A stretch of DNA of 64,000 bases from Acidobacteriota bacterium (GCA_965209055.1 OZ242374.1:4704001-4768000); one strand, 5' to 3'; shown: positions 4,433 through 31,351, numbered from the stretch's first letter. Notes: a model not told the origin generated them from the sequence alone. Translations and numbers: made by a program.

Positions 4433-4852
4433 GTTGGAACGTCCGGCAGCAAAAAACCCGTTTACCGTGGAAGCGAAGCGAGATAGGAAACGGGGAAGAG
4501 CGTGCCGGCTTTCAGAAACCGGGTCTACTGCCTGTTTGTCGCGCGTTCAGCATGTCAAACATGGGGAGCCAACCACTTTACCGATTCGGCGAAGAACCTG
4601 GTAAACGTCTGAAACAGTTACTGTTTAGCAGTTCTTGACTGAGGGGCGGACGGGTTTGGGAATCGCTCCTCCTCGCAGTTTTCCTGCATTCCAGCGTTAA
4701 AGAGTTTACTGGATGTTCCACTGGAAAAGCTGGGCCGTTTTTGCCTTTTCAACCCTTGTCTCGTCATTGCGTTCCTGCTGGGTGCGGGCCGCCTCCTGAC
4801 CGAGGAGCAGCAGCGTCCCCGACTCGCCTTTGACCGGACACAGACCGTCGAA

Positions 4853-16410: not shown

Positions 16411-17238
16411 GTGGCCGAGAACCCTCTTGCTCCGCCCCGGGACCGGCATCTGCTCGAGTTTTTTGCCCGGCAGTACGATCTGCGCCTCCCAGGCGATCGG
16501 CTCCAATCCCTCGGCGCTCTGGCTCGGAGTTTTTCCCGGCTTCCCTACGAGAACCTGACCAAGATCATCCGGAGTTCCCGGAACGGCAAGGGACCGTCCG
16601 CACGGCGCCTCCCCGCCGAGGTTCTGGCGGATCACCGGGAGCTGGGGACGGGAGGGACCTGCTTTTCGTTGACGGCGACGCTGCTCCGCCTGGTCCGCAG
16701 CCTGGGTTTCAAGGCCCAGCCGATCCTGGCGGACCGTCACTATGGGGCAGACACCCACTCGGCGCTGCTGGTCCGGATCCGGGGGCGCCCCCACCTGCTG
16801 GACCCCGGCTATCTGGTGGTCGAGCCGGTACCGTTGGACGAGAATCGCGAAGTGGAGGTCAAAACTCCGTTCAACCGTCTTCTCCTCTCCCCGGAAGGCC
16901 CGGGAAGAATGCGCCTCTACACCCGGCAACAGGGCGGGCGGAGTCATCGGCTCACGTTCAAGACCTCGCCCGCCGATCCGGGACAGTTCCTGAAGGCCTG
17001 GGACGAATCCTTTTCCTGGGAGATGATGACCCATCCTCTGCTGACCCGGGTTGAAGGAGGAAAACAGATTTATCTCAACGGCCGGCGGTTGCAGATCCGG
17101 ACCCACACCGATGTCGTCCGGACGGAGTTGGACCGGGCAGAGCTTCACCGGCAGATCGCCGCGACCTTCGGCATCGCCCCGCCCGTGGTTCGCACGGCCC
17201 TCGCCATTTTGGACGACGCCTCCCGTGGCTCAGGTTGA
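16411..17238 (+). CDS. Arylamine N-acetyltransferase family protein
   Basis: PYENL, GGTCF (catalytic Cys), His in THSAL, Asp in LLDPGY. Confidence 0.8.
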   Translation: MAENPLAPPRDRHLLEFFARQYDLRLPGDRLQSLGALARSFSRLPYENLTKIIRSSRNGKGPSARRLPAEVLADHRELGTGGTCFSLTATLLRLVRSLGFKAQPILADRHYGADTHSALLVRIRGRPHLLDPGYLVVEPVPLDENREVEVKTPFNRLLLSPEGPGRMRLYTRQQGGRSHRLTFKTSPADPGQFLKAWDESFSWEMMTHPLLTRVEGGKQIYLNGRRLQIRTHTDVVRTELDRAELHRQIAATFGIAPPVVRTALAILDDASRGSG

Positions 17239-17782
17239 AGCGGTCGAGCCGGTCAAGCTACTGGTGGCCCTGCTCTGGGCCGACTCCCGTTCCCGGAATT
17301 CGGCGCTGGAGGATATGGAGCGCCGGTGGGGCGCCATCGACTTCAGTGGAGCCGACCACCCATTCGACGTCACCGATTACTACGAGGCGGAAATGGGACC
17401 GTCGGTGCAGAGGCGCCTGGTGAGCTTCTCCCGCATGATCCCTCCCGAGTCCCTTCCGGAGGTGAAGCTGGCGTGCAACCGGATCGAGGAGCAACTGGCC
17501 CGCCGAGGCTGCCGCCGGGTCAATCTGGACGCCGGCTATCTGGACCACAGCAAGGTGGTCCTGGCCAGCATGAAGTTCGCCGGCCAGAAGATCCACCTGG
17601 GCCAGGGTGTCTACGCCGACCTCATGAGCCGCTACCGGAAGGGCCGGTACCGGCCCCTGGAGTGGGCGTTCCCCGATTTTCGAGACGGCCGCTACGACGC
17701 GGACCTGGCCCGGATCCGGGATTTGTATATGGCCAGTCGGCGGGGAGCGGCGATTTCCAATCGCCGATCAGGGGAGGGTTAA
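17225..17782 (+). CDS. DUF4416 family protein
   Basis: TDYYEAEMG, RRVNLDAGY, FPDF; the C-terminal codons run through the REP left arm. Confidence 0.8.
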   Translation: MAQVEAVEPVKLLVALLWADSRSRNSALEDMERRWGAIDFSGADHPFDVTDYYEAEMGPSVQRRLVSFSRMIPPESLPEVKLACNRIEEQLARRGCRRVNLDAGYLDHSKVVLASMKFAGQKIHLGQGVYADLMSRYRKGRYRPLEWAFPDFRDGRYDADLARIRDLYMASRRGAAISNRRSGEG

Positions 17783-17851
17783 TGGAAGGTAGTCCCCTCC
17801 GTACACTTTCCCGATCCAATTAGGTACGCAAAGACGGGACGATTGGAAATC
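17744..17851. repeat. REP pair (family 1) interrupted by the element; attL core at 17841-17851
   Basis: Left arm GGAGCGGCGATTTCCAATCGCC (17744-17765); right arm starts GGGACGATTGGAAATC (17836-17851) and resumes at 28464 as GCCCCTCCT. Confidence 0.8.
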
Positions 17852-17901
17852 CGTTGTACTGTCCAGATGAGCTACGGGATTGGTCCTTTCTTTTCAACAG
17901 G

Positions 17902-19008
17902 TTATCCTGATTCTCCTCTCAAATTTTTCCCCTTGGTTCTTGCCCGTTGCCTGTTTGTTGCCTGTTGCGTTTGGGAGTCTTCGTTAGCCTGTGCCTCTCG
18001 AATGCTCTGGAGTGCATGCGAACTGACGTACCCGGCGTAGCGCATGGTCGTGCTGATCGCCGAGTGGCCCATCAGCTTCTGCACCGTCCTCACGTCCACC
18101 CCCTGCATCAGCCAATGGCTGCACCGGAATCGCCGCAGGTCGTGAAATCCGACCTTCAGCCCCACGCTCTCGGCAGCGCGACGTAGCGGCGTGTCGGGAT
18201 TCACCCATCTCGTCCCAGTCCGGCTGTTGACAAAGACGTAAGAGGTGTTCAAGTATCGTGGGAGCCCTGCCAGATATCCGGTGGCGTACTGCGAAAGCGG
18301 AATCTCCCTCGTCTCGTCGTTCTTGGTGAACTCCACCCATAGCAGCCGGCGGACCAAGTCCACCCGTTTCCAGGTGAGCGACAAGGCTTCGCCTTTCCGT
18401 ATCCCCGTCTCGCCGATCACCGCAACCATGGCTTGCAGGTAAGGGTTGTCCATCGCCTCGACCAGGTCGCGGAACTGTTGAACCGTCAAGGGCCGGAAGA
18501 CCTTCTTGGGTTCTTTGAGTTTGGGGAATCTCACCAGCGGGTGCGTGTCCACCTCCCCGCACTCCAGCGCGTAGGAAAACATCTTGCTGATGGCGGCGAC
18601 GGCGCGGTTCACCGTGGCCGGCTTCACCTGTTTCTTCCTCTGGGCGACGTAGCGGTGCAGGTCTTTGCGTTGGAACTCCTTCAGGGGAATGTTCCCCAGC
18701 ATGGCGTTGAGGCTCTTGAACGAACCCTCGTAGCTCCGCCAGGAGCGCATGCGAGGTTTGCAGTACTCCTCGAGAAATCGTTCGTAGAAGCTCCGGACCG
18801 TCCAGAAGGTGCGTTTCCCACCGGCGAGTTCCCGCTTGAGCTGCTTCCAAGTGCCGTCCAGGATGCTGGACTCGATTCGTGTTTGAAGCGCCTGTGCGCT
18901 CCGGTAGTTGGGGGCGTACATTCGGAGCCGACCGGATCCGTTCGGCCAGTACTTGCTGACGACGTACCGTCGTCTCCCCCGGCGATCCTTCACCTTATAG
19001 ATGCCCAT
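17902..19008 (-). CDS. Tyrosine recombinase/phage-type integrase
   Basis: Catalytic set R(GIRKGE), K(TKN), HDLRR, MGHS, TMRY; N-terminal arm-binding-like region; RBS AGGAGGAG before ATG 19008. Confidence 0.93.
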   Translation of the reverse strand: MGIYKVKDRRGRRRYVVSKYWPNGSGRLRMYAPNYRSAQALQTRIESSILDGTWKQLKRELAGGKRTFWTVRSFYERFLEEYCKPRMRSWRSYEGSFKSLNAMLGNIPLKEFQRKDLHRYVAQRKKQVKPATVNRAVAAISKMFSYALECGEVDTHPLVRFPKLKEPKKVFRPLTVQQFRDLVEAMDNPYLQAMVAVIGETGIRKGEALSLTWKRVDLVRRLLWVEFTKNDETREIPLSQYATGYLAGLPRYLNTSYVFVNSRTGTRWVNPDTPLRRAAESVGLKVGFHDLRRFRCSHWLMQGVDVRTVQKLMGHSAISTTMRYAGYVSSHALQSIREAQANEDSQTQQATNRQRARTKGKNLRGESG

Positions 19009-19246
19009 GCATCTCCTCCTTTCTGGATCCGGGTTCTTCGCCTTGGGGCGAATCGTACCACGGCTCCAGAGAATCAACGCAGGCGTTCAAGTCCACTGGG
19101 GCGAAGACGCGTCGGTGCCGACCGGCGGTGTCCGGTTCGGCTCTGGCTTGGATGACGTTCAGATCGGCCAATTTGCGAATCGTGCCGATGCCCTTGCCCA
19201 GATACTGGGCTGCGGACGCAACACTGAAAAGCCTCCGGTTGGGCAC
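18995..19246 (-). CDS. Excisionase-like HTH (MerR/HTH_17-type) protein
   Basis: LFSVASAAQYLGKGIGTIRKLAD...GRHRRVF; overlaps the integrase start. Confidence 0.75.
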   Translation of the reverse strand: MPNRRLFSVASAAQYLGKGIGTIRKLADLNVIQARAEPDTAGRHRRVFAPVDLNACVDSLEPWYDSPQGEEPGSRKEEMHGHL

Positions 19247-19352
19247 CTGGATCAGGGCGGCTGGGCGGTCGTATGCACGGACGCACCCTATACGGTCATG
19301 GAGGCGGCGTTGGGTGGTGTCCTAATTTGAAATCGGGCAGAACTACCCACTA

Positions 19353-19733
19353 TCAGTTGGTGTGGCGGTTCAGTACCGACTGATAATAGTTCTTTATCTT
19401 TTCCAGTTTGGGAAGAATGTCCCGGTCCACGACCCCACGGTCCCAGGTACGAGCCTTGTAACGTGCACAGTAGGCACTTGACTTCAGGGGGCCATAGAAG
19501 CGGACCAAATTGCGTCTCAGGTCGGGATGGGAGGCAACTACCCTCGCCCTCGTCTCGTGGCTGTGGGGGTCAAAACGACATGTTGGAATTATGTCGATGA
19601 TGGCATCGACATAATGAAGGGCCGCATATCCCGCGACAACAACCGCCCAAGTCCAGTGTGTGCGGGATTTCAACAAGTAATCCAAACACTCCTCGCACTC
19701 TTTCGCCTTCCGCAAGTGCTGTTCATAGGTCAT
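19353..19733 (-). CDS. HEPN domain protein
   Basis: H..KA, W......YAALH.VDA, H..R, Y..L.....ARY pattern of small HEPN proteins. Confidence 0.7.
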   Translation of the reverse strand: MTYEQHLRKAKECEECLDYLLKSRTHWTWAVVVAGYAALHYVDAIIDIIPTCRFDPHSHETRARVVASHPDLRRNLVRFYGPLKSSAYCARYKARTWDRGVVDRDILPKLEKIKNYYQSVLNRHTN

Positions 19734-20271
19734 TGGACAGGACTTTGAACTCGTCGGAGACAGTTACTGAGTGTGGCAGAACGTAACAGTCAAAACCGAA
19801 AATCCGATTGGAGACGATCAAGTCAGCCTCAAAATCGAAAACCTCGCCGACCTCGTCATAGTCCAGATCCTTGAAGAGAGACCAGACGACAACAGTACTG
19901 CTCCTCCGAAGATAGACCACACTGTGGGCATTCGGGAAGGTCGCAAACACGCGGTCGGCGAATGACTGCATGATGTCTTCCAAACGTGCGGCATCCCGCT
20001 GCACAACAACTTGAGTCGCTGGTTCAGTACTGAGGGAACGAACGTCTCCAGTTAGTACCGGTGCCCAACCGGAATTCCAACAGCGACCCAGATCTCCCAG
20101 GGCCATCAGGTCCAATCCATCGGCCACCTTGGGCGTTGTGCCGTCACGAACGGACTGTGGACGCTGCCACGCCTGTCCTTCAAGGAGAGCGTCCTGGCAA
20201 GATACGAATCTTGGATGGTCAACCATCACCGATCCGGTCAGGCTACGAGATGACGAGACTTGGTATTTCAT
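19723..20271 (-). CDS. Hypothetical protein with a degenerate minimal nucleotidyltransferase-like C-terminal domain
   Basis: C-terminal alpha/beta pattern VVVWSL...VFDFEADL......FDCYVLP; no GSxARG/DxD motif; coupled to the HEPN gene. Confidence 0.5.
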   Translation of the reverse strand: MKYQVSSSRSLTGSVMVDHPRFVSCQDALLEGQAWQRPQSVRDGTTPKVADGLDLMALGDLGRCWNSGWAPVLTGDVRSLSTEPATQVVVQRDAARLEDIMQSFADRVFATFPNAHSVVYLRRSSTVVVWSLFKDLDYDEVGEVFDFEADLIVSNRIFGFDCYVLPHSVTVSDEFKVLSNDL

Positions 20272-20519
20272 CAATGAACCTCTTCTTCGTCAGGACTCCG
20301 CGACACGTCCACTACATTCGAAGAACGAACCAAGAAGATCGGCTCTCCGTTGGCGTCCTTTCTGTTGAGACGGTGGATCTTGGTCGCCACCAGTTTGATA
20401 CGAACCGTTGATCCGTCCTCGCACGAATACTCGTTCCAGTCTTCGCGGACCGAGGAGAACCCAAGCTCCGTCGAGGGTTCCCATTTCCCGTCAACCATGA
20501 TTCGCGTTTTCTTAGACAC
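20271..20519 (-). CDS. Small beta-rich hypothetical protein
   Basis: EDWNEYSCEDGSTVRIK...D.NGEP.FLVRSSNVV; GGAGG RBS; TGATG overlap with the next gene. Confidence 0.7.
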   Translation of the reverse strand: MSKKTRIMVDGKWEPSTELGFSSVREDWNEYSCEDGSTVRIKLVATKIHRLNRKDANGEPIFLVRSSNVVDVSRSPDEEEVH

Positions 20520-20626
20520 TACAATCCTCCAATTTCATTAGAATCAGGTACTTACGGATTCAAGATGATTAGACGCGACCACACACCGCCAACAGTTTCT
20601 CCATCACCTCATGCAAAAGTACCACA

Positions 20627-22348
20627 CTACACAGCCTCCCCGCTAGTTGGTCGGTCGTGTCCTAGTGCGGGGGCAACGGATGCCAGCACGTCATGCAGAA
20701 GGGAATCGAGGAGACGATGGCGGGTGCCATCGGCGGTACCGATACCGGCTTCCAGCCGATGGCAGAGCACCATGAGTTCATCGACCTTGCCGACGATGCG
20801 GTGCTGCTCGGCGAGCGGCGGCAAGGGAAGCGGCAAGGCCCGGAGAATTGCCTGATTGATCTTTGGCATTGTTTTCTGCGCCCCGGTTGCGTTTTCCGAG
20901 AAGTAGTTCCTGGCCGCGGGAGATACACAAAAGAGATGTACGAATCTCAAGCTGACTTCGGAAGAAAGCCTCACGCGTATCATCAAATCCGGGAAGATGA
21001 ACTCTCCCGGCGGACCATCGTAGATCGCAGCCATGCCGACGTATTCGCGGGTATTGCCGCGCTGAAACAACAAATCGTTAGGTTGGAGCCAAAACTCCGA
21101 GTCTGGCCCGATGACCGCGTCAACTCGCTTGAAGTGGGAGATGTCAAAGGTGCCGCTTGTCGTGGCGCTAAGAGTGACTGCCCTTGGCGCATCCTCCCTT
21201 GCTGACGGGCGTGGCGACAGCCCATTCCTTGGGCCAGCAACGATTACGTGTCCTAGCTGTCCCCACGCCCAGTTGGACGGCAGCGCATACATGCCTTGGA
21301 TGGGATTGCGGCACTTGTCCGGACGCGGCGAGGACAGACGCGCAGACTTTATTCGCGCGTGAACTTCTTGACCGGAGCCCTCCTCTGGATTTGGCTCCAC
21401 GAGCTTCCCCCGCACGGCGAGGCCAAGAATCGTCTGGCGTAGATGCCTGATCTGATCGGCACGAGCGGTCAGTGCGGGCAGGGCATCGACGGCAAAGCGC
21501 GCGTGAGAACGAAACGTCGGCGCGTCGATGTCGGGTGCGTTCAGACGGGTCAGGCTGGCCTTGGTCAGCCGGTCGCGGGTGTCCTCCCGCACGGTGCGTG
21601 CTTCCTCCAACTGGTCGCAGACGGCCATGAGTTCGTCGACCTTGGCAGCTATGCGGTGCTGCTCGGCAAGGGGCGGGAGGGGAAAAGGAATGCTCAGTAA
21701 CTCTTTGAGCTTGATGCCCTTCACTGTCAGGCCAGTTCCTTCGAAACCGTGCGTCAGGAAAAAATTGTAGGTGTAGTCAACGCTCAATAGGTCCGACAGG
21801 ATAAGCGCTCGCAGGTCTTGATTAATGGCAACAGCGACCCTGTTGATCGATACCTTGCCTAGCCCCATGCGGGTCACGACAAGGAGGTTGTCCGGCTCAA
21901 TGAGGTTCGATGAACTGTTCTCAAGGCCAGCCTCTGTGATGCGGTCAATGGTGTCATCGAGATACTTGGACTTGCCAACGTCCTTGACGCTTGCCCAGCG
22001 CACCGAACCACCCCAGTATTTCCCATTGCTTTTCGAAGGTGTCCCACCTCCAAGATGCTTGACTATGACGTCGCCCAGTGCGACGAAGGACCAGCCTGAG
22101 GGCAAGTCATAAGAAGGTTCATCGACTACTTCTATCCGCTTCAGTTTCCTGATCAGTCCCGCCTTCACCAGCCGCGCCTTCTGCGCCGCCATCCGTTTCA
22201 GCAATTCCGCCGCCGGTTCATCCGACGGATCCTGCTCCACCAGCTTCCCCCGCACGGCAAGATCCAGCACGAAGCGGCGCAGACGGCCAACGGCGCCTGG
22301 TGCCTCGGCTACGCGGTCATAGAGGGCGAACAGGCGGTCGGCATTCAC
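20627..22348 (-). CDS. hsdS: Type I restriction-modification specificity subunit
   Basis: Two target recognition domains; repeated PLPPLAEQHRI..KVDELM and LAVRGKLV. Confidence 0.93.
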   Translation of the reverse strand: MNADRLFALYDRVAEAPGAVGRLRRFVLDLAVRGKLVEQDPSDEPAAELLKRMAAQKARLVKAGLIRKLKRIEVVDEPSYDLPSGWSFVALGDVIVKHLGGGTPSKSNGKYWGGSVRWASVKDVGKSKYLDDTIDRITEAGLENSSSNLIEPDNLLVVTRMGLGKVSINRVAVAINQDLRALILSDLLSVDYTYNFFLTHGFEGTGLTVKGIKLKELLSIPFPLPPLAEQHRIAAKVDELMAVCDQLEEARTVREDTRDRLTKASLTRLNAPDIDAPTFRSHARFAVDALPALTARADQIRHLRQTILGLAVRGKLVEPNPEEGSGQEVHARIKSARLSSPRPDKCRNPIQGMYALPSNWAWGQLGHVIVAGPRNGLSPRPSAREDAPRAVTLSATTSGTFDISHFKRVDAVIGPDSEFWLQPNDLLFQRGNTREYVGMAAIYDGPPGEFIFPDLMIRVRLSSEVSLRFVHLFCVSPAARNYFSENATGAQKTMPKINQAILRALPLPLPPLAEQHRIVGKVDELMVLCHRLEAGIGTADGTRHRLLDSLLHDVLASVAPALGHDRPTSGEAV

Positions 22349-23796
22349 CGCAACAGTGCCTCGGTCAAGATTCCTTTCAACTGGTCTCGTACCGATATCA
22401 CCTCGGCCTCGGCACGCGTCAACTCCTCCAGAAGCGTCTCGGGATCGCCATGATCTTCTTCCTCGGTATGAGGGTTCTTGATGTCGAGGTTGTATCCGCG
22501 CGCCGTAATCTCCTCAACAGTCACCTTCCAGGCGCGATCACCCTCCTCTCGACCCGTGCGTTCCATCCCACCCCACCAAGCAGCACAGTCCTCAAGATGC
22601 TCCAGCCGGATGGGTCGGGTCATGGAATAGGCTTTTTGGCCTTCGGGAACGAGATGTTCCCAGAACCAGATGTCCTTGGTCGGTTCGCCCTTCTCAAAGA
22701 ACAGCAAGTTTGTCCCGATCGAGGCGTAGGGACGGAACACCGAATTCGGCAGGCGCACGATGGTGTGAAGATTGCATTGCTCCATCAGTTGCTCCTTGAG
22801 CCGGGTCTTGACGCCCTCGCCGAACAGGGACCCGTCGGGTAGGACCACGGCAGCCCTGCCGCCCGGTTTCAGAAGCCGGATGATCAAAGCTAGGAACAGA
22901 TCCGCCGTCTCGCGCGTCTGGAAGTGCTTCGGGAAGTTGGACTCGATGCCGTCCTCCTCCTTGCCGCCGAACGGCGGATTGGTCAGCACAATGTCCACGC
23001 GCTCGTCCCTGCCCCAGGAGATATAGGGACGCGCCAGCGTGTTGTCGTGGCGCAGAAAGGACGGATCCTCGATGCTGTGCAGGAGCATGTTCGTAACGGC
23101 GAGCATGTGGGGAAGCGGCTTCTTCTCAACCGCCCGAAGGGAGGTTTGCATTCTTGCTTCGTCCTCGGGCCGCTTCACGTACCGTTCGCGCATGTGCCGG
23201 ACGGCGCAGGTGAGGAACCCGCCGGTGCCGCACGCCGGATCAAACAGGGTCTCCCCGGGTTTCGGGTCGATCATCCGGGCCATGAACGAGGTCACGGCCC
23301 GTGGCGTGTAGTATTCGCCCGCATTGCCGGCCGATTGGAGATCGTTCAGGATCTGCTCGTAGATGTCGCCAAAGTGCCGGCGGGCAGCCAGGTTGTTGAA
23401 GTCGATCCCGTTGATCTTGTTGACGACTTGCCGCATCAGTTGCCCGGACTTCATGTAGTTGTAGGCATCCTCGAACACGTCGCGCACGACGTTCGCGCGA
23501 GGGGCGGCACTGGGCAAGAGTTTCTTCAACTGCGGAAAGAGATCACCATTGACGAAGTCGAGCAGATCCTCGCCCGTGATGCCTTCCGGGTCGGCGGCCC
23601 AACTCCGCCACTGCAAGGAGTCAGGTAAGGGTGAACGGTATCCGTCCTTAAGTACTTCGAGCTCCCGGTCCTGATCGTCGATGATCTTGAGAAAGAACAT
23701 CCAGCACAGTTGGCTGATGCGCTGCGCATCGCCATCAACGCCCACGTCCTGGCGCATGATGTTCTGAATGGACTTGACGAGGGTGCTGACGGACAT
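22345..23796 (-). CDS. hsdM: Type I R-M N6-adenine methyltransferase
   Basis: GEYYTPR, DPACGTGGFL, TNPPFGG. Confidence 0.95.
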   Translation of the reverse strand: MSVSTLVKSIQNIMRQDVGVDGDAQRISQLCWMFFLKIIDDQDRELEVLKDGYRSPLPDSLQWRSWAADPEGITGEDLLDFVNGDLFPQLKKLLPSAAPRANVVRDVFEDAYNYMKSGQLMRQVVNKINGIDFNNLAARRHFGDIYEQILNDLQSAGNAGEYYTPRAVTSFMARMIDPKPGETLFDPACGTGGFLTCAVRHMRERYVKRPEDEARMQTSLRAVEKKPLPHMLAVTNMLLHSIEDPSFLRHDNTLARPYISWGRDERVDIVLTNPPFGGKEEDGIESNFPKHFQTRETADLFLALIIRLLKPGGRAAVVLPDGSLFGEGVKTRLKEQLMEQCNLHTIVRLPNSVFRPYASIGTNLLFFEKGEPTKDIWFWEHLVPEGQKAYSMTRPIRLEHLEDCAAWWGGMERTGREEGDRAWKVTVEEITARGYNLDIKNPHTEEEDHGDPETLLEELTRAEAEVISVRDQLKGILTEALLR

Positions 23797-23799
23797 CTC

Positions 23800-26154
23800 T
23801 TACGCGACCTCTTGATAGAGAGCGGACTGTACATCGTGCACCGCCCGCTCGAAACCGGGCTTCCCGCCGAACGCGCGGACCAGTTCCAACGGTGTGCCGA
23901 GTCGGTCGAGTGGAGCGATCCTGAGAAACTTGGCGTCGTCGATATTGAGCATACCCTCGTCCGCGTACTTGTCGAGCAACGCATCGAGCACAGCGCGGGC
24001 CTGACCTCCGTATTTCGTGAACACATCCCGCTTCTTGACGTTCTCGGCCCGCTCACGGCGGGTCAGCGGTTTGGCGTCGAAGGCGACGTGGCAGACGAGA
24101 TCGAAGGGGTCGAGATCCTTGTCCAGCTCTTGCGCGATCACTGTAAGCGGCAGGCCCTCGGCCTCCATCTCGTCAATGATCGCCTGCTTGCGCTCGGCGG
24201 CTTTCCATCGGGTCAGGAAGTCGTCAAGGCTCGCGAAGCGCCTACGCAAGGCCTTCCTCGTGAAATCGCGTAGCGACTCGGTCACCAGCTTGCCGTGCCC
24301 GTCGAGATACTGCACCCGCGCGGCGACGATGGCCACTTGGACGCCATCGACATAGATTTTCTTCTGTGGCCCCGGTGGCGGATCTACGTCGCCGTTCCCG
24401 TTCGGGCCGGGGTCCGGCCCATCGGGTGGCGCGATCGGACCGTCTTCCTCCGGCCTGTAAATCTGGACCGGCTCGCCGTCGAAGTCCGGGTCCGCGAAAT
24501 GACCGGTCGCCCCCCGGAAGTCGATGAGCGTGAAGTAGAACTTTCCTGTGTCTTCGTGAACGCGGGTACCGCGGCCGACGATCTGCTTGAACTCGGTCAT
24601 CGACCCCACCTTTCGGTCGAGTACGATCAACCGGCAAGTCTGGACATCGACGCCGGTGGATAGCAGGCGCGACGTGGTGACCAGGACAGGATATCTCGAT
24701 TCCGGGTCGATGAAGTTCCCGAGCTCGGCCTGTCCCGCAGCATCGCCACCGGTGATCCGCATGACGTAACATGAGTTGCCCTCGACGAGATCCGCGTTCT
24801 CGTTGATCAGTGCCTGGCGCATCCGCGCGGCGTGTTCCTGATCGACGCAAAAGATGATCGCTTTCTGGAAGCGGTCGCCACTCTCCTTCAGGAAAGTTGT
24901 GACCTTTTCCGCGACGAGTGTCGTCCGCTCGTCGATGACCAGAGTTCGGTCGAAGTCCGTCAAGTTGTAAATGCGATCCTTAACTGGCTCGCCGACGCGG
25001 TCGACCTTTCCCTTCTCTGGGCGGTAGCCCTCCACGTCACGATCGATATGGACCTTGACCACCTTGTAAGGCGCGAGGAAACCGTCTTGGATGCCCTGCT
25101 TCAAGGAGTAGGAGTAGACCGGCGCCCCGAAATAGGCAATGTTGGAGATGTACTTCGTCTCCTTCGGTGTGGCCGTGAGGCCGATCTGGGTTGCGGAGGA
25201 GAAGTATTCGAGGATCTCGCGCCATGCCGAATCGGCGGCGGCACTACCCCGGTGGCATTCATCGATCACGATCAGATCGAAGAACCCCGGCGTGAAATTC
25301 CGGTAGGCCTTCTGGTATTCCTCCGGCCCGGTAATCGCCTGATAGAGACCGAGATAGACCTCGTACGCGGGGTCGATACGGCGCGAGAGCTTGGTCATCT
25401 TACCGCCGAACGGGCGGAAATCGTTCGTCATCGTCTGGTCGACAAGCACGTTGCGGTCGGCGAGGAACAGAATGCGCCTCTTGCGTCGTGCCTTCATTAG
25501 CCTCCAGATAATTTGGAAGGCGGTGTACGTCTTGCCCGTACCTGTGGCCATGACGAGTAGGATACGGTCCTGCCCCTTGGCGATGGCCTCGATCGTCGCG
25601 TTGATGGCGTTGACCTGATAGTAGCGCGGCGTCTTGCCGCCGCCGTCATCGAAATAGTCTTGAAGGACGATCTCCTCTGCTTCCGGCGTCAGGCCCTTCC
25701 AGGCCCGATAGCGCGCCCACAGATCGGTGGGTGACGGAAAGTCTTCGAGAGAAAGGTTCGACTCAAGCGGTGTACTGGCCGCCGTGCGGTCGTGGAACAC
25801 GAAGCCGTCGCCGTTGGAAGAGAACGCGAAGGGAACGTTCAGGATCTCAGCGTAATCCAGAGCCTGCTGCATGCCGTCGCCGACGCTGTGGGAATTGTCC
25901 TTTGCCTCAATCACCGCGATCGGGATGTTCGGCTTGACATAGAGGACGTAATCGGCGCGTTTGCCTTTGCCGCGTGCGACCAGCTTGCCGCGCACGACGA
26001 TGCGGCCCTTTGTGAAGCTCACCTCCTCTCGAATCTGGGACATCTCGTCCCACCCGGCGTTGCGAAGGGCGGGCGTGATGAACTTCGTGCAGATGTCGCG
26101 CTCCGAGAGGCCTCTGTTGTCCATCCGGCTCAGAGGCCCCCCGTTCTGTTCCAC
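23800..26154 (-). CDS. hsdR: Type I R-M endonuclease subunit (EcoAI/EcoEI-like)
   Basis: ADY...IEAK nuclease motif, [26 protein letters not shown], EcoEI-type C-terminus. Confidence 0.95.
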
Positions 26155-26155
26155 G

Positions 26156-26344
26156 TCACTCCCGTTCCTCTGTTTCCGGTCGGGTACCAGGCATGTGGAG
26201 CGCCTTCATCGGCTCAAATTCCTCTACCGAGAACACCACGACAACCGGCCGCCGGTGCTTCGTAACCGTGAAGGGTGCGGCGCAGGCGAGGCCGATGAGG
26301 CGTCCAAAGCAGTACTTCACGTCTTTCGCGCTCAGTGTCCGCAT
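26156..26344 (-). CDS. Phd/YefM-family antitoxin-like protein, possibly degenerate
   Basis: [15 protein letters not shown].....[19 protein letters not shown]; no toxin partner; abuts hsdR. Confidence 0.7.
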
Positions 26345-26650
26345 GCCATTCCCAAAGTTGATGGCAAACGTCAATCTTGGACAATTTGGCTGACCGGAGC
26401 AAGGCGAAGTACCCACTTGGACCCTTCCCAATTCGTTATCGGACGCCAAGGTCAGCTAATCTCACTTGTCTATGGGCGTTCTGCTCCAGCGCTTCGACGA
26501 GGTCCCGGTTCCCATTCCGGATCGAGCGTTCAACCAGATCCACTTGCCACCCCGGATCAGCAAGACCGATGGCCTGCGCCGCCCCACAGAGGATTGACTA
26601 CACGGGTTGCCAGAGCCAGCCTTATTGGAGCCTTCCCGCCAGGGATAATT

Positions 26651-26752
26651 TGGACGGGAGCGACCCCCCCAAGGGGGTGTGGCGCAGATGTGAATTGCGC
26701 AACACCCCCGCGCCCGCACCGGGCAGCAAAAAGGGGGGGTCGCTCCCGTCCA
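26651..26752. other. Nested inverted-repeat structure (three-way junction)
   Basis: Perfect 20-bp inverted repeat 26651-26670 / 26733-26752 enclosing a 14-bp stem (26673-26686 / 26696-26709, one mismatch) and a 5-bp hairpin (26712-26724). Confidence 0.75.
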
Positions 26753-27567
26753 CCTCCATTTTCCCCGTGCGGCCACCCTGTGGCCGGAAATATGGCCGCA
26801 ACTGAGTGAAACGCCAAGGGATCGGGGGAGACGGATTTGTGAGTCACCGGGACCGCTTTTTGTGAATCCACCCCCTTTGTCCCATTCACATCCCGGATCG
26901 GGCGCGAGACCCTCTTTTCGCACAGCCGAAACGGCCCTCCATCAGCCTTTGCGACTGCCAAGTGCGGAACCGTCTCGGCAACCGTCTCGCAACGTTCGCA
27001 ACACTGCTCACTTGGCCCGACCCGATAGCCTCGCCTTCCGGCGCAGGTCCGCTCGAAGCCCATGGACCCCTGGATCGGTTCGGCTGTCCAGGCTCCCGAG
27101 ATTCCCCGTAGCGAGCGCGTCGGATCAATGGATGGGATCGGTCTCCAAGTCTTGAACTTCGCTGGCCTGGGAAACCGGGACCCGCCCCCGGAGATTAAGA
27201 CCACAACGGCAATCATGAGAAACGACCCTGATCGCCTTGGGCCTGATTGTTGCCGGTGGCTCTCTGGCGACGGGGGGGGCTGTTCCACGCCGTTGCGTAC
27301 CACGAAACCGTGACCGTGACGCTCATCAGGGCCTAGGGAAGTCGCTTCTCGCGGGCAGCCAACGGCCAGACGGCCACATTCTTCCCAACTCAGCCGGAGT
27401 CATCTGCCGCCAAGGCGAGGAAAGAGGTAAGGCTCTCCGCTAAAGGACCATGGGCTTGTTCAGACCTTCCCTAAAATCACGCCATCTGAACTTACCCAGT
27501 GAGCCGATTGCGGAGAAAAATACACATTTCATAGTGCGAGTCTGATCAATACCAGGAGGTAGGCATC

Positions 27568-28128
27568 ATGAGAATCCTTAGAGGCATGCGCAACAGGCGG
27601 TTTCGGAAGACGATGGCTGGGGGATTGGTCCCCTTGCTGCTCCTGGTGGTCTTGCCGGGGTGTGTCGCGCGGCACATGCCGGATTGGGAGAAGTTGGAGA
27701 ACATCCGTGACAACGCGATCACGCGGGTGGAACTGTATGAGGACAACACTCTTGGTGACGGCTCGACCAAGTACACGGGTCAGTTCTACGGGGCGTCCTC
27801 CCGGTCCATGACGATTGTGTCCACGGACGGGATGTCGCAGACGTTCCAGCGACCGGACATCCGCAAAGTGCTGGTCGAACGTGATTTCGGCAAGCGGTGG
27901 GCCGGATGGGTTGCCCTGGGCTTTGGATTGGCGCTTTGCTCAGGTTTTTTGAGTGACGATTTCGCTCCGAGTGCCCAGGTTCTATTCGGAATTGCTCTTC
28001 CTGTCGGTGTCTCCATCCCGTTTTTCATGGGCTCAAAGATGGGAGGCATTTACGAGATCCCTCCATCGCAAAGAGGAGAATGGAACCAGTATAGTGCTGG
28101 CCGACTGGAATCGAAGTCCGGCAATTAG
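27568..28128 (+). CDS. Putative lipoprotein with C-terminal membrane hairpin
   Basis: RBS AGGAGG, lipobox-like LPGC, small beta domain, two hydrophobic segments. Confidence 0.65.
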   Translation: MRILRGMRNRRFRKTMAGGLVPLLLLVVLPGCVARHMPDWEKLENIRDNAITRVELYEDNTLGDGSTKYTGQFYGASSRSMTIVSTDGMSQTFQRPDIRKVLVERDFGKRWAGWVALGFGLALCSGFLSDDFAPSAQVLFGIALPVGVSIPFFMGSKMGGIYEIPPSQRGEWNQYSAGRLESKSGN

Positions 28129-28309
28129 ATGTTTTTCCAAGGATCAACTTGTGATGAAGGTGAGTGAAGACGGGGAAGCCGTTGCCAATGGGAAACGAAT
28201 TTGTCAGGGTTCAGGGGTTGCCGAGCGTCGCTGTCCAAAGATCGATACAGCGCACGCATAATGTGTTTTGAACCTGGGGAACAAGGGAAAAGAGAAGAGA
28301 TTGTCGGCG

Positions 28310-28472
28310 TTCAGGAACCGATTCGGCTGCCTGTTTGTTGCCTGTGCAGCACGCCAAACATGGGGAGTCAACCACTTTACCGATTCGGCGAAGAACCCGG
28401 TAATCCATTGAAAACGTTAATGTTTAGTAGTTATTGACTGAGGGACGGTTGGGATTGGAAATCGCCCCTCCT
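28310..28472. repeat. Element right end (attR), shared with 4511-4673
   Basis: Ungapped alignment at offset 23799; contains the arm-type repeat, IHF-like TAATCCATTGAAA (28401-28413) and the core. Confidence 0.85.
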
Positions 28473-28499
28473 GGCGCGGACCGTTTATGATGTGGGGCA

Positions 28500-29339
28500 A
28501 TGCAAGCTACACGAAATATGCTCTCGCTGGCGGCCGGTCTGGCTTTCTCCGTCCAGCTCGGATCGTGCGGGACTGCTCCATCTGATCAGACTCCCCAGCC
28601 TCCCGAACCGGAGGCCGTCGCCGGCTGGCGGATGGTCGACCTCACTCACGCTTACGGCGGGGACACGCTCTACTGGCCCACCGACACCACCGGATTCCGG
28701 CTTGAGACGCTTGCCGAGGGACAGACGCCCGGAGGCTACTTCTACGCCGCCAGGAAATTCGCGACCGCGGAGCATGGCGGAACGCACCTCGATGCGCCCT
28801 TCCACTTCGCCAAGGGAGGCGCCACTGCAGAATCGATTCCCTTGGAGCGACTCATCCTCCCGGGGATCGTCATTGACGTCACCGCGGCGGCGGCGGCCGA
28901 TCCGGACTATCTGGTCACGCCGGCAGACATCACGGGGTGGGAGGAGAACCACGGCCGCGTGCCGGAGGGGTCGGCCGTACTGATCCGGACCGGTTGGGCC
29001 GCCCGCTGGCCTGACGCCCTCGCCTACCTCGGCGACGACACACCCGGCGAGACCGGAAACCTGCACTTTCCCGGGATCGGTGAAGCGGCGGCCCGTCTGC
29101 TGGTGCAGGAACGCGCCGTCGGGCTGCTGGGCATCGACACCGCCAGCGTGGACTACGGTCAGTCCACCGACTTCATCGTCCACCAGGTCGGGGCCGCCGC
29201 CGATGTGCCGAATCTGGAGAACGTTGCCGACCTGTCGGCATTGCCACCCCTTGGGTTCCTGCTCGCGGCGTTGCCGATGAAGATCGAAGGCGGCACCGGC
29301 GCGCCGGTGCGGATCGTCGCGCTGATCCCGCCGCGTTGA
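28500..29339 (+). CDS. Cyclase family (kynurenine formamidase-like) lipoprotein
   Basis: EHGGTHLDAPFHF, LIRTGW, GIDTASVD, LEN, GGTGAPVR. Confidence 0.9.
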   Translation: MQATRNMLSLAAGLAFSVQLGSCGTAPSDQTPQPPEPEAVAGWRMVDLTHAYGGDTLYWPTDTTGFRLETLAEGQTPGGYFYAARKFATAEHGGTHLDAPFHFAKGGATAESIPLERLILPGIVIDVTAAAAADPDYLVTPADITGWEENHGRVPEGSAVLIRTGWAARWPDALAYLGDDTPGETGNLHFPGIGEAAARLLVQERAVGLLGIDTASVDYGQSTDFIVHQVGAAADVPNLENVADLSALPPLGFLLAALPMKIEGGTGAPVRIVALIPPR

Positions 29340-29391
29340 ACTACCGAAAGATGCGAGACAGAACATTTTTTCCTTGCAAAGGAGGACGAAC

Positions 29392-29775
29392 ATGAACGCA
29401 CAACGCTTGAATCCCCCGTCTCTGCCGACGCCGGCAGCCGCGTATTCCCAGGTGGTCCGGAAAGGGACGCTCGTGATCACGGCGGGACAGATCGCCTTCG
29501 ACGCCGACAGCAATCTGGTGGGCGAAGGCGATATCGAGGCCCAGACACGGCAGACACTCGAGAACCTGAAAACGGCCCTTGAGGCCGCTGGCGCCTCGTT
29601 GGACGACGTGATCAAGGTCACCGTCTTTTTGAGCGACATGGTCTATTACCAAGGCATGAACGCCGTCTTCAACGAGTATTTCGAGGGGCGCCCTCCCGCA
29701 CGCTCCACCGTCCAGTCGGGCCTGGTCCTCCCTTCCCTGCTGGTGGAGATCGAAGCCATCGCCGTGGTGGATTGA
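29392..29775 (+). CDS. RidA/YjgF family protein
   Basis: YSQ, AGQI, QTRQTLENL, PARS, VEIEAIA. Confidence 0.92.
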   Translation: MNAQRLNPPSLPTPAAAYSQVVRKGTLVITAGQIAFDADSNLVGEGDIEAQTRQTLENLKTALEAAGASLDDVIKVTVFLSDMVYYQGMNAVFNEYFEGRPPARSTVQSGLVLPSLLVEIEAIAVVD

Positions 29776-29785
29776 CGTCCGACAA

Positions 29786-31351
29786 ATGAACCTGTTCGAG
29801 AGCAGCGGCGGGCTGGCGCCCATCGACTGGATCATCATCGTCCTCTACGCCGCCGGGACGATTGTGCTGGGGAGCTACTTCACCCGCCGGCAGACCAATC
29901 TGGAGGAGTACTTCACCGGCGGCGGCCGCATGAACCCCAAGCTGATCGGGGTGTCGCTCATGGCCACCTCGCTCAGCACCATCGCCTATCTGGCCATTCC
30001 CGGCGAGGCCATCGCCAACGGGCCGGTGGGTCTGGCCAACCAGCTGGCGCAACCCTTCATGTTCCTGGTGGTCGGTTTCGTCCTCATTCCCTATTTCATG
30101 CGCACACGGGTCATCAGCGCCTACGAATTGCTGGAGGCCCGCCTGGGTCTGGGAGTCCGGATGCTGGGCGCCGCCATGTTTCTCGTTTTCCGGCTGGTCT
30201 GGATGTCGCTACTGGTCTTTCTGGGCGCCAACGCACTGGCCATCATGATGGGCCTGGACGAATCCTGGATTCCCTGGATCACCCTGATCACGGGAATGGT
30301 GGCCGTCACCTACACCTCCCTGGGCGGGCTCCGGGCCGTTGTCATCACCGACAGTTTCCAGACCATCTTCATGTTGGGAGGCGCCATCCTGGTGATCGGA
30401 CTGGTGAGCCATCGGTTGGATGGCTTCGGCTGGTTTCCCACCTCCTGGCAACCCCACTGGGACGAGCAACCCCTGTTCAGCTTCGACCCTTCCGTCCGGA
30501 TGAGCATCCTGGGCACGGCCTTCTCCACCTTCGTCCTGGCGACCTGCGGCCTGGGGGGCGACCAGACCAAGATCCAAAGACTGATGGCCACCGTTGACGC
30601 CCGGGCCGCCCGGCAGGCCTACCTGGTCAACCAGATCGTCGGCGTGACCATCGTTCTGGTCCTCTGGATTGTGGGATTCGCCCTGATGGGGCTGGTCCGG
30701 AGCCATCCGGACCTGCTGCCTGCCGGAATGGACATCGTCCGCAATGGTGACAGTCTGTTTCCCTACTTCATCGCCCACCTGTTGCCGCCCGGGATCTCGG
30801 GCCTGGTGGCGGCCGCCATGCTGGCCGCCGCCATGTCCAGCATCGATTCCGGAGTCAACTCCATCACCGCCGTCGTCAACCGCGACTTCCTGGACCGCTT
30901 CGGGTGGTTCCCGTCCGATCCGCGGACGCAGGCGCGCTGGGCCAAGATCCTGGCCTTCGTCATCGGCGCCGTCATCGTGGGGGGGAGTTCGTACATGGGC
31001 GCCGTCCCCGGGAACATCTATGCGGTGGCCAAGAAGACCTCCGGGTTGTTGATGACACCCATGTTCGGGCTCTTCTTCTTCGCCTTCTTCGTGCCCTTCG
31101 CCCGCCCCGCCGGTGTGGCTGCGGGCGCCGTCGCGGGCATCACCACGGCGGTCCTCCTGGCCTACTCGGGACCCATCTTCGGCATGCACCCGGTGACGGG
31201 CGAGGACCCGGTGAGCTTCATCTGGATCGCCCCGGGAGCCCTGGCCGTGAACTTGGCCGTGGGCCTCTCCGTCAGCTACGTTCTGCACGTTCGGCGGAAT
31301 CGGATCCCACGCCTTCCGGACGACGGCTCCGGCCGGTGCGGTGAGAATTGA
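29786..31351 (+). CDS. Sodium:solute symporter family transporter
   Basis: SAYELLEAR, YTSLGGLRAVVITD, AAAMSSIDSGVNS. Confidence 0.92.
   Translation: MNLFESSGGLAPIDWIIIVLYAAGTIVLGSYFTRRQTNLEEYFTGGGRMNPKLIGVSLMATSLSTIAYLAIPGEAIANGPVGLANQLAQPFMFLVVGFVLIPYFMRTRVISAYELLEARLGLGVRMLGAAMFLVFRLVWMSLLVFLGANALAIMMGLDESWIPWITLITGMVAVTYTSLGGLRAVVITDSFQTIFMLGGAILVIGLVSHRLDGFGWFPTSWQPHWDEQPLFSFDPSVRMSILGTAFSTFVLATCGLGGDQTKIQRLMATVDARAARQAYLVNQIVGVTIVLVLWIVGFALMGLVRSHPDLLPAGMDIVRNGDSLFPYFIAHLLPPGISGLVAAAMLAAAMSSIDSGVNSITAVVNRDFLDRFGWFPSDPRTQARWAKILAFVIGAVIVGGSSYMGAVPGNIYAVAKKTSGLLMTPMFGLFFFAFFVPFARPAGVAAGAVAGITTAVLLAYSGPIFGMHPVTGEDPVSFIWIAPGALAVNLAVGLSVSYVLHVRRNRIPRLPDDGSGRCGEN

Follow-up and report, generated by a model that had tools for sequence, protein, structure and literature searches.

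A defence island with a tyrosine integrase of probable tRNA-Arg ancestry and a REP hairpin as its likely attachment site in an Acidobacteriota genome

We analysed a stretch of 64,000 nucleotides from an Acidobacteriota bacterium (GCA_965209055.1 OZ242374.1:4704001-4768000; hereafter the window, with positions counted from its first letter). Positions 17852-28452 very probably correspond to an integrated mobile island that encodes a lambda-type tyrosine integrase, has a repetitive extragenic palindrome (REP) hairpin as attachment site and belongs to a tRNA-Arg-derived lineage; we give this reading, together with the mechanism proposed below, a probability of about 0.85. A preliminary description of the same DNA had already proposed that the integrase uses a multicopy intergenic palindrome as attB, and this proposal is upheld by an empty-site contig, 23 pairs of sister-element ends, the high copy number of the targets and the element-free loci of three of eight relatives. 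The tRNA ancestry, an 18-nt motif present near both ends and the size of the family had not been seen.

Boundaries of the window element and its empty site

The 11-nt sequence GATTGGAAATC is present on the + strand at 17841-17851 and 28453-28463, on either side of a 10,612-bp block, so that the 11-bp direct repeat previously reported to bracket an integrase and Type I restriction-modification (R-M) block is borne out. Its reverse complement lies at 17752-17762, within an upstream palindrome, and an inverted-repeat scan pairs 17744-17762 with 28453-28471 (19 nt, 95% complementary). The features of the two junctions are as follows.

17744..17765, no strand assigned: upstream REP palindrome GGAGCGGCGATTTCCAATCGCC, inverted partner of the REP split by the element; the pair makes up a REP doublet
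17836..17851, + strand: attL, host side, with the 5' half of the target REP (GGGACGA) and the 11-bp core 17841-17851 (centre TTGGAAA, 17843-17849)
17841..17878, - strand: homology to the 5' half of tRNA-Arg(TCT), putative P' arm of attP, with the D arm, the 5' anticodon stem and the core at the anticodon-loop position
17902..19005, - strand: tyrosine integrase gene (int), 367 amino acids (aa) from MGIYKVKDRRG, lambda-Int-like three-domain layout in the model
17948..17965, + strand: first copy of the 18-nt motif, TGCCTGTTTGTTGCCTGT, within the 3' end of int; candidate arm-type site
28303..28452, + strand: conserved right end, putative P arm of attP, holding copy 2 of the 18-nt motif at 28328-28345
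28453..28471, + strand: attR, with the core 28453-28463 (centre 28455-28461) and the 3' half of the target REP (…GCCCCTCC)

The direct repeat is by itself weak evidence and is not significant: allowing one mismatch, the 11-mer has four matches in the window against 1.13 expected, and 3 of 100 shuffles reached four. The 6.08-Mb genome contains 104 copies of the 11-mer, 89 of them within the intact palindrome CGATTGGAAATCG. It is the context that makes the insertion real; we accept it because the inner sequences are the conserved ends of an element family and because public contigs provide the empty site. The G+C content changes from about 0.65 in the flanks to 0.51-0.62 inside the block, which is flanked by a DUF4416 gene on one side and a putative cyclase gene on the other. 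The DUF4416 open reading frame (ORF; window 17051-17782) reads through the upstream REP and takes its last residues from the palindrome, the gene of relatives ending about 40 nt sooner.

Contigs from public sequencing runs were aligned to window positions 16500-29800 at 90% likeness. A joint from 17840 to 28453, which skips 10,612 letters and leaves 11 letters fitting both sides, was found in three runs from two samples. In run X23 it is carried by a single 284-nt contig with sides of 100 and 184 nt and zero mismatches, the left side including locus-unique DNA; the run shows zero depth in the unique-cargo bins while the contig bridges the site. The joint is less well supported in X20 (side of 30 nt) and X19 (side of 19 nt), two runs from one sample that also contain the cargo at 100% identity. 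The intact REP that removal of the block had been predicted to restore is thus found in public data as an exact 17840/28453 empty-site contig, which may be an excision product or a never-occupied allele. Two other X23 contigs join 17767 to 28453 with 36 letters between; they match the canonical spacer of REP doublets, may derive from other doublets and were not counted. The depth of cargo and flanks (16-18 versus 23-28 in X19, 40-50 versus 46-60 in X20) hints at a mixed population, a point for which contig depth is insufficient. Runs labelled sponge or coral-reef metagenome contain a fifth to a third of the sampled words and permit no conclusion on habitat; the one such run that was aligned, X1, contains a relative at about 96% identity on the left flank.

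The left-flank genes are present in all eight same-genus genomes. At three of these loci (L030, L033 and L035) the cyclase gene follows after 51, 241 and 159 nt of REP hairpins, with no element, and the REP stands just before a conserved stretch upstream of the cyclase gene. The expectation of an empty site in related genomes thus holds for an element-free locus with a REP spacer in three of the eight, and fails for the REP sequence itself, which is not that of the window.

Sister elements and their core classes

BLAST searches with parts of the element found 27 integrase matches of at least 860 nt in the genome, at 83-92% identity, together with 27 left and 29 right ends. A protein search gave 28 integrase matches in the source genome and 9, 2, 1, 1 and 0 in same-genus genomes; across the order, 18 of 61 genomes contain an integrase homolog. 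Twenty-three pairs of left and right ends could be defined, delimiting elements of 2.7-25 kb. When the right end (28310-28452 region) was searched genome-wide for adjacency to REPs, as the preliminary description had suggested, REP-type palindromes proved to hold the ends of all 23 paired elements. In 23/23 pairs, attL and attR have the same 7-nt centre. The rebuilt target folds as a core-centred hairpin in 22 of them, and the remaining one still contains the palindrome GCGATTGGAAATCGC. At 15 of the 23 sites the centre directly adjoins a perfect stem of at least 5 bp, a feature shown by 0.16% of genome positions taken at random; at the five class D/D' sites the stem is 8 bp long, with the register shifted by one, and the window's own rebuilt site has a 3+3 bp stem around one mismatch. 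The classes, named after their centres, and the REP families of the source genome are listed below.

Class A (that of the window): centre TTGGAAA, 5 left ends, in REP GCGATTGGAAATCGC (80 intact copies)
Class A': centre TTAGAAA, 1 left end, in REP GCGATTAGAAATCGC (15 intact copies)
Class B: centre CTGTTAG, 7 left ends, in REP GGGACTGTTAGTCCC (37 intact copies)
Class C: centre CTAACAG, 7 left ends, in the same REP as class B
Class D: centre TAGGAAA, 4 left ends, in a hairpin with 1 intact copy
Class D': centre TTGGAAA in a G-stem REP, 1 left end, in a hairpin with 1 intact copy
Unused by the integrase family in the source genome: REP GCGGTTAGGAAACCGC (91 intact copies)
Unused by the integrase family in the source genome: REP GCGGTTGGGAAACCGC (52 intact copies)
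Unused by the integrase family in the source genome: REP GCGGTTGGAAACCGC (54 intact copies)

Two further left ends are degenerate. Five family members lie within 50 kb of each other at 6.026-6.077 Mb, and one (left end projected at 6077197) spans the end of the single contig. The window itself contains a second family member in remnant form, as one feature:

4495..4664, + strand: remnant of a second family element, a solo right end adjoining GTTTGGGAATC and a REP 3' half

This solo right end (4495-4653) has 82% identity over 182 nt and a degenerate 18-nt motif; neither an integrase nor a left end was found there. The independent second insertion previously placed at 3.3-4.7 kb therefore survives in part, as a right end beside a REP half with no integrase.

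In class D, only TAGGAAA is common to both junctions, the adjacent bases being of host type at one end and of element type at the other. Because these ends share only those 7 bp, both strand exchanges appear to be confined to them; the 11-bp repeat of the preliminary description is present, and the identity needed for exchange is shorter. Classes B and C have reverse-complementary cores and host flanks, and both are found at GGGGGGACTGTTAGTCCCCCC in opposite orientations. One REP family is therefore used both ways, with the orientation apparently set by the asymmetric centre. In a tree of the same-genome integrases, from which 5 of the 24 were omitted as interrupted or degenerate, A, A' and D' form a clade (100/99), and B and C are intermixed in one clade (96/94). 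Since they are intermixed, the integrase protein does not seem to decide the orientation on the B/C REP.

The targeted families have the properties of REPs: they are short GC-rich palindromes of high copy number, often arranged as inverted doublets. Many REPs of the genome form such doublets with a conserved spacer, the window target being a right member with its partner at 17744-17765, and about 496 hairpins of the genome have a common CTCC tail. These censuses are motif counts; a census of 7+7+7 palindromes was dropped as too strict for REP families. A RAYT-like family (PF01797, Y1 transposase) has two weak matches in the genome, of 30.8 and 23.6 bits for a cut-off of 23. The 30.8-bit match (L091, genome 1142970-1143203, minus strand) lies in the REP-rich flank of the A' element, about 580 nt away from its left end.

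An integrase that needs only a 7-11 bp core, with REPs as merely its commonest carriers and an irrelevant stem, would account for part of these data, since the genomic distribution of the 11-mer means that a sequence-driven enzyme would mostly hit REPs too, and the left stem is poor at two class A sites (5216603 and 2499713). Class D and D' elements share only 7 bp, yet all five are in G-rich hairpins of one type, where a 7-mer by itself would be expected to turn up far more widely; all 23 paired elements lie within palindromes; and the inverted repeat GGGA/TCC surrounds the centre of attP in every class. We regard a core-only requirement as improbable. Spread of the elements by segmental duplication or by homologous recombination between REPs has in its favour that REPs can promote recombination, as the available text of one survey indicates (PMC1525189), and that several elements are clustered at 6.03-6.08 Mb. 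The 23 pairs have distinct outer flanks and mostly distinct cargo, with no copies seen to have host DNA in common beyond the REP halves, while the boundaries are exact to the base in every copy and the empty site is precise; the probability left to this explanation is negligible.

tRNA-Arg ancestry of the element ends

On the integrase strand, the ~40 nt that separate the int stop codon from the junction show homology to the 5' half of the genome's own tRNA-Arg(TCT). The homology extends over 38 nt, covers the acceptor-stem end, the D arm and the 5' anticodon stem, and ends at the core. The local alignment score to tRNA-Arg(TCT) is 56 for the window element, against at most 30 for 50 shuffles, and scores of 45-58 were obtained in all seven classes tested, against at most 32 for shuffled queries. 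The rebuilt attP retains an inverted repeat GGGA-N7-TCC(G/C) in every class. The window element thus carries in its attP a tRNA fragment ending at the crossover, and it is not itself integrated in a restored tRNA gene, as the relatives L017, L041, L042, L043 and L055 are.

The genome G003, from the same genus, encodes a single integrase (82% identity) followed by an intact, co-oriented tRNA-Arg(TCT) gene, and the sequence between int and the tRNA is that of the REP-borne elements. An intact co-oriented tRNA-Arg(TCT) also stands directly downstream of the integrase on contig L017 (85% identity over 165 aa), and relatives at 71% identity are located beside tRNA-Arg(TCT) and tRNA-Arg(TCG). In genome G035, identical integrases occur at the tRNA-Arg(TCT) and (TCG) genes; from the upstream DNA through the 5' half as far as the anticodon, these two genes do not differ. 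The G035 integrases (L041, L042 and L046) lie at about 4.55 Mb and 5.13 Mb; its TCG gene is bordered on the 3' side by a second, convergent integrase (47% identical), one tRNA gene being occupied from both sides. Among 20 homologs from across the order (38-82% identity), the 3' end of int adjoins a tRNA gene in 16: a co-oriented tRNA-Arg in 4, a convergent tRNA-Arg in 3, a tRNA-Thr in 2 and a convergent tRNA-Leu in 7. The other 4 have none. The boundaries of homologous integrases therefore agree with the expected REP targeting for the 23 same-genome sisters and depart from it for more distant relatives (38-85% identity), which are mostly at tRNA genes. Seven tRNA-Leu(TAA) genes were called by ARAGORN in the source genome, one of them within the element B_2095940 (L070:8959-9045; Rfam tRNA 59.8 bits), and distant integrase homologs adjoin tRNA-Leu genes.

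A quick maximum-likelihood tree places the tRNA-Arg integrase of G003 as sister to the REP-associated clade (SH-aLRT 99 and 92); the clade of 71% relatives at tRNA-Arg branches outside, as do those at tRNA-Leu and tRNA-Thr. Rows L003 and L009 of this tree were disregarded (ORF extraction gave a wrong or extended frame), and L005 and L013 were excluded as too short. In other genomes of the genus, the integrase and the tRNA-like stretch are followed by further REP variants (loops CTTCCAG, TTTCTAG, TTTCCTA, CTTTTAG and CTTTCAG). Read on the integrase strand, the loop CTTCTAA of tRNA-Arg is one change away from TTTCTAA (A') and two changes away from TTTCCAA (A). Most likely the family originated from an anticodon-loop tRNA-Arg integrase whose attP core changed, directing it to REP hairpins instead.

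The REP hairpin is shaped like an anticodon arm and the element end derives from a tRNA, as would be expected if the targets were decayed tRNA genes or fragments and the elements ordinary tRNA-targeting islands. ARAGORN called 69 tRNA/tmRNA genes in the genome, none in the window or at any element junction; the targets are 15-21-nt palindromes in 37-80 copies, often inverted doublets with a CTCC tail; and no D or T arm is present outside the element. Such an origin of the targets is exceedingly unlikely. The tRNA homology bears equally on the idea that the elements are transposons with a 7-bp target-site duplication and that the core is not part of the excised element. A transposon would fit the high copy number, the insertion sequence (IS)-like 2.7-kb members, the identical integrases at different loci (A_1127390 = A_5216603; C_4497900 = C_6056895) and the lack of a circle junction among the joints listed. 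The only family-wide gene is a tyrosine integrase, the tRNA-Arg homology spans the core, each end of the element bearing one half of the anticodon stem, which places the core in attP, and the occurrence of relatives at intact tRNA-Arg genes is a signature of conservative site-specific recombination. Transposition of this kind is, in our estimate, very unlikely.

The integrase and its candidate arm-type sites

The integrase matches PF00589 (E = 1.2e-25) and has the catalytic domain of a tyrosine recombinase, with R203, K228, H288, R291, H314 and Y323 invariant in 17 aligned homologs. An uninterrupted ORF of 361-385 aa starting with MGIYKVKDRRG is present in 19 of the 24 integrase genes examined. 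In the AlphaFold model (pLDDT 86.4), residues 2-50 form three strands and a helix (pLDDT 83-91). Foldseek aligns the model over 342-349 columns with full-length lambda integrase (1z1g, 1z1b), other matches being XerA, the Tn1549 integrase (6en2, 6emz; TM 0.58/0.67) and IntI4 (2a3v). The protein reaches no curated NCBIfam model, and no relative was found among IMG/VR viral contigs.

The 18-nt motif, with the consensus TGCCTGTTTGTTGCC(T/G)GT, is present on both arms in 23/23 elements, about 97 nt inside the left end (19/23; in the other 4 a variant with three mismatches stands at 86 nt) and 125 nt inside the right end. The two copies are candidate arm-type integrase-binding sites, one on each arm of attP.

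Three int genes, of classes B, D and A, each contain a 1.9-kb group II intron, inserted at one common codon position and on the integrase strand (L066:1148-3025, L079:9385-11262 and L086:1149-3026, at about 784.2-786.1, 3708.1-3710.0 and 5306.1-5308.0 kb of the genome), with Rfam scores of 160.7 bits for RF02005 and 41 bits for RF00029. This looks like homing of a group II intron into the int gene of the family. The first 70-200 nt of int, corresponding to the N-terminal arm-domain region, also match at 85-88% at loci that lack the remaining integrase (genome 2757471, 463582, 1067604, 2973864, 183624, 2679470 and 801966), often with copies of the non-coding module described below nearby; these loci may represent a second integrase family with a common arm domain.

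Shared backbone and variable cargo

Only three parts are shared family-wide: int, the ~150-nt right end and a 340-nt non-coding module. The smallest elements (2.7 kb) consist of int, the module and the ends. The tyrosine integrase being the sole family-wide gene, and DDE genes only occasional cargo, the family lacks the DDE/DEDD transposase of REP-targeting IS. Between the integrase and the right end, the window element contains the following features.

18995..19246, - strand: 83-aa ORF, candidate excisionase, overlapping the start of int
19353..20274, - strand: two ORFs of 126 aa and 183 aa (19353-19733 and 19723-20274), unique to the window element
20627..26154, - strand: complete Type I R-M system, with hsdS (20627-22348), hsdM (22345-23796) and hsdR (23800-26154), from Pfam and PADLOC
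26156..26449, - strand: 97-aa ORF with a sub-threshold Phd/YefM antitoxin match (27.3 bits for a cut-off of 29.8)
26627..26966, + strand: conserved non-coding module of about 340 nt, found in most sister elements, with a branched hairpin at 26648-26756
27568..28128, + strand: 186-aa ORF without family match, common to one sister element

Beyond the Phd-like ORF, about 2 kb at the right-hand side of the element are mostly non-coding. In the block described earlier as integrase-excisionase-HEPN-Type I R-M, the integrase, HsdS, HsdM and HsdR are retained. The HEPN label of 19353-19733 is unsupported, the ORF having no match in Pfam (E up to 1), PADLOC or NCBIfam; nor do 19723-20274, 20271-20519 and 27568-28128 match anything in these three collections. 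The support for the excisionase is weak: the 83-aa ORF has an HTH_17 match below the cut-off (E = 0.017), and its DNA is conserved in only about six sister elements, the 2.7-kb elements being without it. A 70-aa ORF at 19074-19286, Arg/Pro-rich and unconserved, seems spurious and was rejected as a gene.

The 340-nt module has 66 copies in the genome, and its hairpin shows compensatory pairs (for example CG 31, AU 6 and UA 3 at one pair); the apparent ORFs across it lie in different frames among elements. It is sometimes present in several copies and both orientations in one element, and also occurs away from elements. An Rfam search of 17000-29500 (E up to 1) returned chance-level matches only (Plastid-psbJ-5, 31 bits versus 53; SNORD57), and no family fits the module.

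The cargo scan covered the ORFs of the window and 155 cluster representatives, drawn by simple ORF calling from 25 loci with a minimum length of 100 aa. Cargo mostly differs from one sister element to another, 146 ORF clusters among 282 ORFs being singletons. R-M cargo includes Type I systems on at least three elements, a NotI-like endonuclease accompanied by a D12 methylase, a type IIG enzyme similar to MmeI, a type III-like Mod/Res pair and a methylase-Mrr combination; other defence cargo comprises GmrSD (two), AbiTii with Abi-alpha and a Cas1-Cas4-Cas3-GSU0053-GSU0054 set. Recognisable defence genes are thus carried by about 9-10 of 25 elements, and the label of a defence-island family is a fair one. 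The CRISPR-Cas set (Cas1, Cas4, Cas3-like, GSU0053 and GSU0054) is located in the 21-kb element B_3925222 (L080:4649-9981 and L081:143-2778). Other cargo genes encode transposases, proteins of the leucine-rich repeat, fibronectin-III and pentapeptide kinds, and three additional integrases in one block; the cargo scanned yielded no genes for transfer or capsids. The block of three, in C_3394724 (L077:6056-9897), consists of adjacent tyrosine-recombinase genes of other types, one with Arm-DNA-bind_3, beside a Type I R-M system, and may be a nested element.

Proposed mechanism and weight of the evidence

We propose that attP is formed by joining the right end to the left end and that it would carry the inverted repeat GGGA-N7-TCCG, derived from the tRNA-Arg(TCT) anticodon stem-loop. 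The 18-nt motif, about 100-125 bp out on each attP arm, would bind the N-terminal arm domain of the integrase. The enzyme could then pair attP with a REP of equal 7-nt centre (TTGGAAA here), the REP stem acting as two inverted core-binding sites, and exchange strands within the 7 bp. What is observed is a core shared by the two junctions, with the REP halves lying outside. As the asymmetric 7-nt centre would set both the target family and the orientation, an altered attP core would be expected to retarget the element; sister elements with other cores do occupy other REP families. The lineage probably arose from integrases that inserted at the anticodon loop of tRNA-Arg and supplied the 5' half of the tRNA. 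REPs would have offered it tens of neutral intergenic sites, in which it might have multiplied to about 27 copies with mostly defence cargo.

Several points weigh against this reading. Rather than from excision, the empty-site contigs could derive from co-occurring strains whose allele was never occupied; the X19 and X20 joints are short-sided, at an alignment threshold of 90% likeness. No circular (attP) junction was found among the public-contig joints listed, none of which goes back on itself, and the end coordinates reveal no tandem right-end/left-end junction in the genome; as no circular junction was seen, the presence of the core in attP can only be inferred. In the three empty relatives the REP at the equivalent place differs in sequence, and in the other five of the eight the right-flank cyclase gene is not within the 1.5 kb examined. 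One copy of the 18-nt motif lies in coding sequence, which might account for its conservation, and no credible family-wide excisionase was found among the elements, the 2.7-kb members consisting of int and non-coding DNA. At the tRNA-integrated relatives of G003 and G035, neither a displaced 5' fragment of the tRNA nor a homolog of the right end was found within 20-37 kb at the far end. Finally, L017, a 165-aa fragment sited at tRNA-Arg, groups inside the REP clade in the quick tree, and the direction of change is for this reason an argument of parsimony, not proof.

A more far-reaching interpretation, which we hold only tentatively and consider rather doubtful when all its parts are taken jointly, is that of a re-programmable integrase platform whose choice of target would be encoded chiefly by the DNA of attP and less by the protein. 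Single core changes would have walked the lineage from the tRNA-Arg loop CTTCTAA to TTTCTAA, TTTCCAA, TTTCCTA and CTAACAG/CTGTTAG, the orientation would have flipped on one REP family, and REPs would be usable as mimics of the anticodon arm. The same interpretation supposes IS-like multiplication, with the 2.7-kb int-only forms, and would make these elements the main carriers of defence islands in these genomes. The elements might then require the covarying 340-nt module as a cis element or RNA, such as a regulator or an origin of transfer.

A natural lineage appears to link tRNA-Arg integrators with REP-using descendants (about 27 copies in one genome). If the mechanism proposed above is true, integrase specificity is evolvable through small changes of attP, REPs can be safe harbours for defence islands, and closely related integrase/attP pairs with different short targets become open to experimental comparison. 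The family may also help to explain the load of R-M and CRISPR genes in these uncultured genomes.

Comparison with known systems

It is commonly assumed that genomic-island tyrosine integrases use single-copy sites, tRNA genes foremost among them, and Williams reportedly described in 2002 tRNA-gene-targeting islands with an anticodon-centred attP. Our literature search found no published tyrosine integrase with REPs as attB, and the literature covered describes REPs as landing sites solely for transposase-type IS; subscription journals were thinly covered, and the absence is thus unproven. Like the anticodon class of tRNA islands (Islander), the window family has an integrase beside the junction, a crossover in a 7-nt loop within a symmetric stem and an attP that contains part of a tRNA. 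Anticodon-centred attP sites are on record, and islands leaving a 5' tDNA fragment amount to 159/3919, as far as the available text of that source goes (PMC4383910). The window family resembles this minority type in that it supplies the 5' part of the tRNA and has close integrase relatives at tRNA-Arg genes. Unlike tRNA islands, it resides in REPs present in tens of copies, shares only 7-11 bp with its target, and its tRNA-derived arm restores no gene.

REP-specific insertion is known for IS1397, ISKpn1, IS621, ISPpu9/10 and others, which belong to families with IS3, IS110, IS4, IS256 and IS5 transposases, according to the accessible portion of one survey (Tobes and Pareja 2006, PMC1525189). 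In the terms of that portion, these IS and the window family both use REPs as specific multicopy intergenic landing sites and reach several copies per genome, whereas the window family uses a tyrosine integrase, carries cargo on elements of up to 25 kb and would proceed by conservative exchange in a shared core. The switch of targets by small changes in a 7-bp core loop has a parallel in mycobacteriophage Ms6, in which altering the 7-base loop of the attP core retargeted integration (PMC1762012). As the excerpt of that study presents it, the Ms6 switch was engineered between tRNA-Ala genes, whereas here a natural radiation would have led from a tRNA gene to several REP families.

Integrons resemble the window family in that a tyrosine recombinase acts on many imperfect, variable palindromes, and the catalytic domain is somewhat similar to that of IntI4. 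In contrast to integrons, the integrase scores only 63 bits with TIGR02249 against a cut-off of 265, no attI or cassette array is present at the locus, and it is the whole element, including the integrase, that moves. Tyrosine-recombinase transposons such as Tn916 and Tn1549 tolerate non-identical overlaps and prefer AT-rich bent DNA. They are also integrase-driven and have many possible insertion sites, and our model resembles the Tn1549 integrase; unlike them, the window family has an identical centre at both ends in 23/23 pairs and targets defined GC-rich palindromes.

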